Positions 10,523 to 12,558 of a stretch of DNA of 39,904 nt are shown in pieces. The translations under genes were made by a program, and so were the position numbers. The number at the start of each line of letters is the position of its first letter. Within the stretch, counting starts at the first letter, position 1. Source of the DNA: Acidimicrobiia bacterium (lineage in GTDB: Bacteria; Actinomycetota; Acidimicrobiia; Spongiisociales; ZC4RG35). The stretch lies in NCBI GenBank assembly GCA_050050035.1, contig JASFVB010000003.1, forward strand, positions 1 through 39,904. The letters are read 5' to 3'. Below the pieces are notes generated by a model. The model did no database searches. It was given only the letters and a program-made list of their open reading frames with translations, and was not told where the DNA came from.

Positions 10523-11539
10523 ATGACAGCTTCCCGAATAGGGCTGATGGGCTTCGGGAGAATCGGGCGCAACGTATTCCGGTTGCTGCACGACCGGGAC
10601 GATCTCGATGTCGTCGCCATCGACGACATCGCCGACCCGGAGGCTCTCACCTACCTTCTCAAGTACGACTCGCTGTACGGCCGCTTCCCGACCGACGTCG
10701 AGTTCTCCGACGGAAAACTCGAATACGGCGACAAGGAGGTCGCCTTCACCGGCGCACGCACCCCTGCCGACACCTCGTGGGGAGATCTCGGCGTCGACAT
10801 CGTCCTCGACACGACCAGTCGCTACCGGACGAGTGCGTCACTGCAGGGCCATCTCGACAGTGGAGCCGGCAAGGTCGTCTTGACCTCGAGCCCTGAGAAA
10901 CCCGGTGAGATACCTCTGCTGCTCCGTGGCATCAACGACGACGTGCTGGACGACAGCCCGGACATCGTCGCACTCGGCTCCAACACGTCAAACGCCGTCT
11001 CGCCGATTCTCGCCATCCTCGACGAGGAGTTCGGGGTCAACCGTGTCTATATGACCGTGGTCAAGGCGATGTCCAACGCGGGACGTCTCGCCGACGTGCC
11101 CACCGACGCATACCGGACCAGCCGAGCCGCGGGCGAGAACATCATCCCGGCGGAGACGAACTCGGCCGAGATCATCACCCAGGCACTCCCCCAACTCGCC
11201 GGCAAGATAATGGTGACGGCACTGAACGTCCCTGTGCTCGACGGCTCCACCGTCGACATGGTCGCCGAGACCGCCCGCACCGTGACCGCCGAAGAGGTGA
11301 ATGAAGCGGTACGAAGGCAGGTGGCGTCCTCCTACGGGGACATCATCGAGTACGTCGACGACCCCATCGTCTCCTCCGACGTGAGACTCGACCCCCACTC
11401 GGGCATCTTCGACAGTCTGGCGACGTTGGTGACAGGTGACGACATGGTGAAGACGATCACATGGTTCAACAACGGATGGGGTTACTCACACCGAGTGGTC
11501 GAAGTCGCCGCATCCATCGCCGCAGGAGGTTCACAATGA
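10523..11539 (+). CDS. GAPDH-like protein lacking catalytic residues (putative pseudoenzyme)
   Basis: [41 protein letters not shown] retained, but ALGSNTSN replaces SNASCTTN. Confidence 0.9.
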
Positions 11540-12558
11540 CCAGGGTCGCCATCAATGGGTTCGGCCGGATCGGCCGGGCCGTCTTCCGCATCATCGCCTC
11601 ACGTCCGGAGTCGGACATCGAGGTGGTCGCCATCAACGACCTGTCCGACGATGCGATCCTCGCCTATCTGCTCGAGTACGACTCGGTCATGGGCAAGTTC
11701 GACCAACCGGTGTCCGCATCCGACGGCGTCATGACCGTCGGTGAGCACGAGATCCAGATGTTGGTAGAGCGCGACCCGGCCGAGCTGCCGTGGGCGGAGC
11801 TCGGAGTCGACGTCGTCATCGAGTCGACGGGCGTGTTCCGTGACCGGGCGTCGCTCCAGAAGCATCTCGACGCCGGGGCACGGCGAGTGATTCTCACCGT
11901 CCCCGCCAAGGACGAGATCGACGAGACGATCGTCCTCGGGGTCAACGACAGGGAGCTCGACGCCGGTGACATGGTGGTCTCCAACGCATCGTGCACGACC
12001 AACTGTCTGGCGCCCCTCGCCAAGGTCCTCGACGACGCATTCGGCATCACCAAGGGTGTGATGACGACGGTCCACGCCTACACCAACGACCAGCGACTGG
12101 CCGACGTCCCCCACAAGGATCTGAGACGCAGTCGGGCCGCAACCGAGAACATCATCCCCACCACGACCGGCGCAGCCAAGGCGGTGGGAAAGGTCCTCCC
12201 CAAGCTCGACGGCAAGCTCGACGGGATGGCGATGCGGGTGCCCGTCCCCGACGGCTCAACCGTCGACCTGGTCGTGGAGTTGGAGAAGGAAGTGACTGTC
12301 GAAGAGGTCAATGCAGCGGTCAAGGCCGCCGCCGACGGCCCTCTCGCCGGGATCCTGGAATACACCGAGGATGCGATCGTCTCCACCGACATCATCGGCA
12401 ACCCGCACTCGTCGATCTTCGACGCCAGTGGCACACAGGTGCTGGGTGGCAACCTCGTGAAGGTCATGTCGTGGTACGACAACGAGTGGGGCTACTCGAA
12501 TCGCGTGGTCGATCTGATCGAGCGTCTCGCCGAGGTGATCGAGCAGGAGGCCGCCTAG
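11536..12558 (+). CDS. gap: Type I glyceraldehyde-3-phosphate dehydrogenase
   Basis: [54 protein letters not shown] and ATGA overlap with the upstream gene. Confidence 0.97.

Follow-up and report, generated by a model that had tools for sequence, protein, structure and literature searches.

One of the most thoroughly studied enzymes is glyceraldehyde-3-phosphate dehydrogenase (GAPDH), which in bacteria is regarded as a homotetramer made from a single gene's product. The stretch of DNA analyzed here (the window: positions 1 to 39,904 of contig JASFVB010000003.1 from an Acidimicrobiia bacterium, 39,904 nt) holds a locus that raises a question about this picture. Two GAPDH-fold genes, both full-length and on the plus strand, stand head to tail and fill positions 10523-12558. 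Gene A (10523-11539; 338 aa, P0001) is a paralogue without the catalytic Cys, and gene B (11536-12558; 340 aa, P0002) is a canonical type I GAPDH. Why is a GAPDH without its nucleophile kept directly before a canonical one? From the comparisons described below, we consider a conserved non-catalytic role of A tied to Gap to be well founded, and the assembly of A and Gap into heterotetramers is our leading hypothesis for its mechanism. If this is true, the pair would point to an additional, so far overlooked, level at which a central glycolytic and gluconeogenic step is controlled or its enzyme assembled.

The gene pair and the active site of gene A

A preliminary description of the locus had reported two tandem full-length GAPDH-fold genes, each with a ribosome-binding site, joined by an ATGA overlap. 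The open reading frames, the domain matches and the 45% identity between the two proteins confirmed all of these points. A Shine-Dalgarno-like GGAG (10515-10518) lies 4 nt before the ATG of gene A. The GGAGG Shine-Dalgarno of gene B (11525-11529) is within the last codons of A, and the start codon of B overlaps the stop codon of A in the ATGA at 11536-11539, a signal of translational coupling. The first of these signals was read from the sequence, the other two from the sequence and from the loci of relatives. The proteins had 150 identities over 332 positions (BLASTP, E 3e-99), and the Gp_dh_N and Gp_dh_C domains were present in both, with E-values of 6e-30 and 9e-40, respectively, for A. On the type I GAPDH model TIGR01534 (cut-off 367.2 bits), B passed with 461 bits and A failed with 290.2. 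Protein A also scored below the cut-offs of the two erythrose-4-phosphate dehydrogenase models (233.7 and 231.7 bits, against 539 and 530.6) and of the ArsJ-associated GAPDH model (252 bits, against 450), and reached none of the curated NCBIfam families. In the genome, which is 92.8% complete, A and B were the sole Gp_dh_C matches, and gene B was the only complete GAPDH found by this search; archaeal-type and non-phosphorylating GAPDHs were not searched for.

The replacements at the active site that had been listed for A were all present in the A/B alignment. The catalytic strand, SNASCTTNC in B, reads ALGSNTSNA in A, with Asn154 (codon AAC, 10982-10984, plus strand as for all sites of A given here) at the position of the catalytic Cys153 of B, inside the stretch GSNTSNA (10976-10996). 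Lys181 (AAG, 11063-11065) stands at the position of the catalytic His180, and Asn235 (AAC, 11225-11227) at that of the phosphate-binding Arg234. We take these three positions to be Cys149, His176 and Arg231 in the usual GAPDH numbering. The Pi loop, canonically TTTGAAK, is remodelled to AETNSAE (11150-11170), and Gly318 (GGA, 11474-11476) occurs where canonical GAPDH carries the Glu of NEWGY. In addition, the second Arg of the RR pair in the S-loop of B is Thr in A, and the Asn preceding GFGRIGR is Met. These assignments were made by alignment to B and, for the Cys, His, Arg and Pi-loop sites, to the orthologues of A; the Gly was also read across the A-like proteins described below. On the other hand, A retained GFGRIGR, the Asp ending the second strand, the S-loop (Arg188-Pro209, 11084-11149; RLADVP...R.SRAA.ENIIP) and N.WGYS, so the retention of GFGRIGR, S-loop and N.WGYS that had been claimed was found again.

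Compared with type I GAPDH (GapA, TIGR01534, PDB 1GD1), A is thus alike in its two Pfam domains, its fold, GFGRIGR, the S-loop and N.WGY, but it lacks the catalytic Cys, the His, the NEWGY Glu and both phosphate sites (the Arg231 equivalent and the Thr208-Gly209 Pi loop), and its score is below the cut-off. Judging from these residues, A is unable to run the GAPDH reaction as it is known, given that a thiol nucleophile is missing and both phosphate sites are disrupted.

The AlphaFold monomer of A had a mean pLDDT of 86.9 and a pTM of 0.86. It was confident except in S-loop residues 184-205, where the pLDDT was below 50. The best fold matches of this model were canonical GAPDHs (Foldseek, TM 0.88 to 1gd1), and a sequence search with phmmer against the PDB also reached canonical GAPDH (E 1e-75). 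Whether searched by sequence or by fold, the PDB yielded no natural A-like structure; all of its matches were canonical GAPDHs or engineered Cys mutants. In the protein atlas, A matched only generic GAPDH-family clusters. An S-loop that is highly conserved and yet is not predicted to fold alone would fit an element of an interface.

Conservation of the pair among relatives and across phyla

The same A-B pair recurred in the genomes of 40 relatives. Of the loci used for comparison, 29 supplied both genes and one more supplied only A. The A orthologues had 338-343 aa and the same start. Their Cys column was Asn in 30 of 30 cases, always inside an invariant GSNTSNA. The Arg column was Asn in 28 and Ser in two, and T-N/S-S/T replaced the T-G-A of the Pi loop in all of them. 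All 29 B orthologues were canonical. A further comparison at the level of the class gave the same result for the nucleophile, as none of 29 sequences kept the Cys. The preliminary description had expected orthologues to lack the Cys and the His alike. This held for the Cys within the class but only partly for the His. The replacement by Lys was real in the window gene and in 20 of the 30 orthologues, those of its genus and the nearest genera; it was not a trait of the family, as the other 10 kept His. More distant members of the clade, labelled Eisenbacteria and Desulfobacterales, keep both Cys and His.

Gene A stood directly upstream of B in 29 of the 29 loci that held both genes, the consistency that had been proposed as a check. 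The junction was a 4-nt NTGA overlap in 26 loci and a 1-nt spacer in three, going by start-codon candidates, and at every one the Shine-Dalgarno of B was encoded within the C-terminus of A. Over 153 genus-level pairs (Nei-Gojobori method), the median ratio of nonsynonymous to synonymous substitution rates (dN/dS) was 0.136 for A (maximum 0.26) and 0.093 for B, which excludes the ratio near 1 that the preliminary description had set against selection. Stop codons or frameshifts were found in none of the 30 A orthologues, barring truncation at contig ends. Gene order, the overlap, the invariant replacement residues, the low dN/dS and the cross-phylum clade described below indicate that gene A is selected and not decaying. 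Purifying selection on it, with the loss focused on the active site as had been suggested, is therefore well supported.

One relative departed from this pattern. In a 60%-complete genome of 20 contigs (G002:C4:1840592-1842548), A and B were both in several pieces, some with in-frame TGA. Since the damage is similar in the two genes, consensus errors seem a likelier cause than decay. We also considered selenocysteine in the gap genes of relatives and rejected it, since the flags of "1 TGA" were the genes' own stop codons.

In the databases, the A orthologues are named only "GAPDH NAD-binding domain-containing protein" by NCBI, and A-type proteins are named glyceraldehyde 3-phosphate dehydrogenase by JGI. 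Because of such names, the number of GAPDH isozymes may be overstated in copy counts and metabolic reconstructions of these lineages.

We searched 151 genomes of the class with a profile built from A. Each of the 15 other genomes in the window's family had the pair, as did several of the families in its order, though not every one. Elsewhere in the class, a genus with genomes of 0.9-1.1 Mb had two adjacent matches in 32 of 35 genomes. The upstream gene was A-like in six of the six loci inspected there, with GSNTANA, Thr at the Arg column and the His kept.

Scanning one genome per prokaryotic species returned 80 loci. An A-like gene occurred in 33 of them, and a canonical gap followed directly in all 33, although in three the gap was cut by the contig end. 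These loci were labelled Acidimicrobiia, Candidatus Eisenbacteria, Bdellovibrionales, Thermoanaerobaculia, Desulfobacterales or "delta proteobacterium", Marinimicrobia/Neomarinimicrobiota and Fibrobacteraceae, with one "Proteobacteria" bin. The phylum names are record titles, and labels of metagenome-assembled genomes can be wrong; the "Acidobacteriota" label of locus L065, whose protein is 71% identical to A, and other such labels may reflect binning. We also sampled 121 genomes from the phylum of one Marinimicrobia-labelled carrier. The 40 two-match loci fetched from them all consisted of an A-like gene and gap, and 39 of 40 single-match loci were a lone gap; one locus of this sample (L175) carried a broken A-like gene before an intact gap. 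In five carriers from other phyla, the pair represented the main, or only, Gp_dh_C genes. In 60 of 61 further loci (not de-duplicated, start chosen by rule), B started between -8 and +3 nt from the A stop. The neighbors of the pair varied and were glycolytic in places (iPGM-A-B-PGK and KARI-A-B-pyruvate kinase). The unit of an A-like gene and gap thus occurs in the same class and under the labels of at least five other phyla.

Among the 150 best cluster representatives nearest to A (phmmer), 119 kept the Cys, 28 had another residue (N8, S7, G4, P3, V2, A2, D1, Y1) and three had an alignment gap. Cys-less GAPDH-fold proteins may be more diverse than the A-like clade studied here.

Origin of the pair and order of the losses

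All of our trees were quick searches with support from the Shimodaira-Hasegawa-like approximate likelihood-ratio test (SH-aLRT) only. In every one of them, the A-like proteins were on one side of a single branch with a support of 99-100: 99 with 42 A-like rows of 131, 99 under a site-heterogeneous model, 99 again, and 100 with 40 of 188 rows. When sampling was dense, a single clade took in the full set of 66 paired gaps together with four lone gaps of the window's order (support 98 and 85), and all 78 other unpaired gaps lay beyond a branch with a support of 96. These 78 included the lone gaps of Marinimicrobia-labelled genomes as well as the gaps of the other orders of the class, which grouped with other Actinomycetota. 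The support of the paired-gap clade varied with sampling (90, 86, unresolved, 98 and 85) and was weaker in smaller samples. The patristic distances between A-like proteins were correlated with those between the gaps paired with them (Mantel r = 0.83, with none of 2000 permutations as high), and by these distances A evolves 2.4 times faster than B. The simplest history would be a single duplication of a type I gap, with the tandem copies from then on passed down together and also carried together from one phylum to another.

Two kinds of gap occur in the class. In orders that lack the pair, gap clusters with that of other Actinomycetota. A module-type gap, which clusters with the partners labelled Marinimicrobia, Eisenbacteria and Desulfobacterales, is found in the window's order and in the ~1 Mb genus. 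This distribution suggests that the native gap was replaced by a transferred two-gene module in the window's order and in the ~1 Mb genus.

Tyr44, Leu188, Ala189 and Ser199 (B numbering) were common to A-like proteins and paired gaps and mostly missing in unpaired gaps. We asked if B had co-adapted to A at these sites: Tyr44 and Ala189 were present in 66 of 66 paired B proteins and Ser199 in 58 of 66. Of 82 unpaired gaps, 76 lacked Tyr44, and the four lone gaps that fall within the paired clade had His44, Ala199 and changed residues at 188/189. The tree offers only one or two independent contrasts, so a sign test is unable to reach significance and we keep co-adaptation as a lead only. Most of the pattern is explained by shared ancestry.

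The changes in A accumulated in a certain order. The loss of Arg at B-234 was clade-wide, with Asn in 93% of 42 A-like rows and in 40 of 40 in the phylum sample. The Glu of NEWGY was lost clade-wide as well (Gly in 42 of 42 rows; in the phylum sample, Gly in 25, Ser in 15 and never Glu), and the canonical Pi loop was lost throughout. In comparison, the nucleophile column was variable. Among 27 A-like rows it contained N14, S6, C4, I2 and A1, which required at least three changes from Cys to another residue, and Thr was also seen in the phylum sample. The phosphate sites were therefore lost first, and the thiol became dispensable later, several times. Such a pattern would be expected if the role of the protein stopped depending on catalysis early. 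The A-like family could serve as a natural series for the evolution of pseudoenzymes, with phosphate sites lost in essentially all members and the nucleophile lost at least three times.

The constraint has also shifted. In paired B proteins, the active-site strand and the Pi loop were among the most conserved stretches, with mean column entropies of 0.29 and 0.37 against 0.98 for the whole protein. The corresponding values in A-like proteins were 1.34 and 1.98, against 1.58 overall. By the same measure, the most conserved A-like stretches included the S-loop (0.96; 0.32 in paired B) and residues 226-245 (0.98; 0.31 in paired B). In canonical GAPDH, the S-loop and the sheet of the catalytic domain form the tetramer interfaces. 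The NAD-site residues GFGRIGR, Asp35, Ser152, Thr154 and Asn316 (B numbering) were found in at least 95% of A-like proteins, paired B proteins and solo gaps.

Possible roles of gene A

Taken together, these data led us to propose that A, made together with Gap, acts without catalysis as its subunit or regulator and binds NAD(H), a proposal to which we give roughly an even chance. A and B would be translated from one message via the conserved stop/start overlap. A retains the dinucleotide-binding motifs and the S-loop; it would bind NAD(H), assemble with Gap into mixed tetramers and tune the activity or stability of Gap, in a "prozyme" or regulatory-paralogue arrangement.

Other explanations should be considered. 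A might be a neofunctionalised NAD-dependent enzyme, with thiol-free chemistry or a non-phosphorylated substrate, that works in the same pathway as Gap but outside the Gap particle. Several features would suit an enzyme: the residues of the new pocket do not vary within the class, the dinucleotide motifs have been retained, the general-base position holds His or Lys, and some A-like members keep Cys and His. Moreover, dihydrodipicolinate reductase and the Gfo/Idh/MocA proteins, which have related folds, transfer hydride without a covalent intermediate. However, the would-be active site is the least constant part of the protein across the family (C, N, S, I, A or T at the nucleophile column, and a Pi-loop entropy of 1.98 against the average of 1.58), and this variability is hard to square with one conserved reaction. 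In addition, the only constant neighbor is gap, with a near-universal stop/start overlap, and no known NCBIfam enzyme family claims A. We thus consider a new enzyme unlikely. A free-standing sensor of NAD(H) or another metabolite, or a moonlighting factor that is co-expressed with Gap and acts on another target, would account for kept dinucleotide motifs without catalysis and for the few lineages in which A was lost and gap retained. Against it, the strongest constraint in A-like proteins falls on the S-loop and the strands of residues 226-245, which build the tetramer in GAPDH, and the low confidence of the S-loop in the monomer model is what would be expected of a segment that becomes ordered in an oligomer and not before. 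An unrelated target would also not require such close co-inheritance with a clade of gap of its own, and this explanation appears quite improbable. Finally, A could be a decaying duplicate without function, as it has lost its catalytic residues, the copy at L175 is broken, and A and B are in pieces in G002. The intact frames of 30 of 30 orthologues (contig-end truncation aside), a dN/dS of 0.14 and the retention of A in ~1 Mb genomes and across phyla make this extremely improbable.

Several observations weigh against our proposal of a Gap-bound, non-catalytic subunit. Four lone gaps lie inside the paired clade (in G028, G029, G040 and G158), with no remnant of A upstream, and L175 (G259:C30) has a broken A before an intact module-type gap. 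A therefore is not indispensable to this type of Gap, and it looks as if A was lost in a few lineages without loss of gap. Within the class, the remodelled pocket (GSNTSNA, TNS and ALNVP) is itself invariant. This invariance, with the His kept or conservatively replaced by Lys, fits ligand binding or catalysis better than an inert scaffold, and the pocket of A probably still binds a ligand. Because Cys and His are both present in the A-like members labelled Eisenbacteria and Desulfobacterales, the A-like proteins may descend from an enzyme. NAD binding by A is also uncertain, as A-like proteins have another residue in place of the Asn before GxGxxG that canonical GAPDH invariably carries. The complex predicted for A and B speaks weakly in favor of their association. 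It obtained an ipSAE of 0.58 (runs 0.58, 0.54 and 0.62; best of three controls 0.00), with at least 98% contact agreement between runs and a partner pLDDT of at least 90. This value passes in the weak band: of 80 solved complexes, 58 attained the pass mark, as did two of 110 mismatched pairs, and passes at 0.60 or below came from only seven of those 80 together with both of the passing mismatches. As GAPDH tetramers have already been solved, the pass may reflect memorised structures and shows likeness rather than binding; such a score is to be expected from homology alone. In addition, a natural A-B fusion was sought among longer proteins (593-2000 aa) and none was found.

In that broken copy of L175, the A-like gene is split in two frames, covering profile positions 2-111 and 199-331, and could be a real pseudogene or an assembly error.

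Four fusion-like proteins were not counted as A-B fusions. P0273 (673 aa) has an A-like N-terminal part, a linker that looks out of frame and a whole B, and P0274 is similar and fragmentary; for both, a frameshift or gene-call artefact is the simplest explanation. P0128 and P0239 are multi-GAPDH fusions of another kind, with Cys in every domain. P0128 (2089 aa) contains four GAPDH domains and P0239 (1455 aa) two, of alternating types (NGAGRIGR... and NGAGRISL...), and they represent a different, fused form of paired GAPDH paralogues.

Known systems offer partial parallels to the proposed subunit. The chloroplast A2B2 GAPDH (PDB 2PKQ and 7Q57) also combines two GAPDH paralogues, one of which carries a regulatory function. 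Both of its subunits are catalytic, however, and regulation resides in a C-terminal extension of GapB, whereas A has no nucleophile and no extension (it ends where B ends), and its assembly with B is a proposal. In NAD-isocitrate dehydrogenase (the regulatory subunits) and in plant PPi-phosphofructokinase (the alpha subunit), paralogues of a central-metabolism enzyme have lost catalysis and bind effectors at the degenerate site; they are like A in being non-catalytic paralogues and differ from it in fold and kingdom. Epd and the ArsJ-associated GAPDH are, like A, GAPDH paralogues beside other genes, but both use the Cys that A lacks. In trypanosomatids, prozymes activate AdoMetDC and DHS. A preprint describes a PRMT1 prozyme there in which a dead paralogue likewise activates the enzyme (bioRxiv 10.1101/776112). 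As in our pair, a dead paralogue is kept by selection beside an active sister. The trypanosomatid systems differ in being eukaryotic, in having genes that are not translationally coupled and in that activation of the heteromer was shown experimentally, while for A it is a hypothesis. An inactive GAPDH homologue has also been described in the flagellum of Trypanosoma brucei. This protein, TbGAPDHL, was judged catalytically inactive, with a cofactor region possibly kept for a ligand; it is cytoskeletal, was read as a relic and is much less conserved than the active isoforms (PMC4106842). It is unpaired with an active GAPDH, whereas the A family is bacterial, strongly conserved and coupled to gap at the gene level. 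In open-access papers and preprints, we found no description of a Cys-less GAPDH partner in bacteria, nor any record of a non-catalytic regulatory paralogue subunit for GAPDH. A review of the aldehyde dehydrogenase superfamilies, in the portion available, mentions unnamed inactive branches only near Asd/USG (PMC12041015).

The proposed subunit can be extended to a bolder form, in which an ancient GAPDH module was passed among at least six bacterial phyla, its mixed tetramers are obligate and the dead site acts as an allosteric sensor of NAD(H) or another metabolite. We regard this form as tentative and somewhat doubtful. If it is true, no prozyme-like regulatory subunit would have preceded A for any core enzyme of bacterial glycolysis, and A would occur in environmental lineages that are abundant, those with ~1 Mb genomes included.

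Surroundings of the pair

The flanking genes of the pair are unrelated to it. Upstream, on the opposite strand, are genes for an M23 peptidase, nadD and rsfS, and a GNAT acetyltransferase gene lies 22 nt downstream. As noted in the preliminary description, pgk is not adjacent; it was located on a different contig, C23. A scan of 10100-13600 found no promoter-like sites, and a terminator scan of the same range found a single terminator-like site, on the minus strand and at chance level. The one RNA-labelled run found, X7 (share 0.08), matched gene B exactly with two contigs of 151 nt (11845-11995 and 12007-12157). Its cover of gene A did not go beyond a conserved-motif bin; contigs from an RNA library are no proof of transcription, a lack of cover carries no meaning either, and the run is uninformative on A.

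Two RNA features were found elsewhere in the window. One is a tRNA gene (7206-7279, minus strand; Rfam, 68.9 bits), flanked by genes for a CLC channel that has CBS and TrkA-C domains (5142-7160) and for a WYL/HTH regulator (7714-8928, minus strand). A c-di-GMP-II-GAG riboswitch aptamer (39300-39381, minus strand), matched by Rfam with 68 bits against a gathering threshold of 40, is located about 100 nt upstream of a 639-aa open reading frame (37281-39200, minus strand) with a SpaA-type prealbumin-fold domain.

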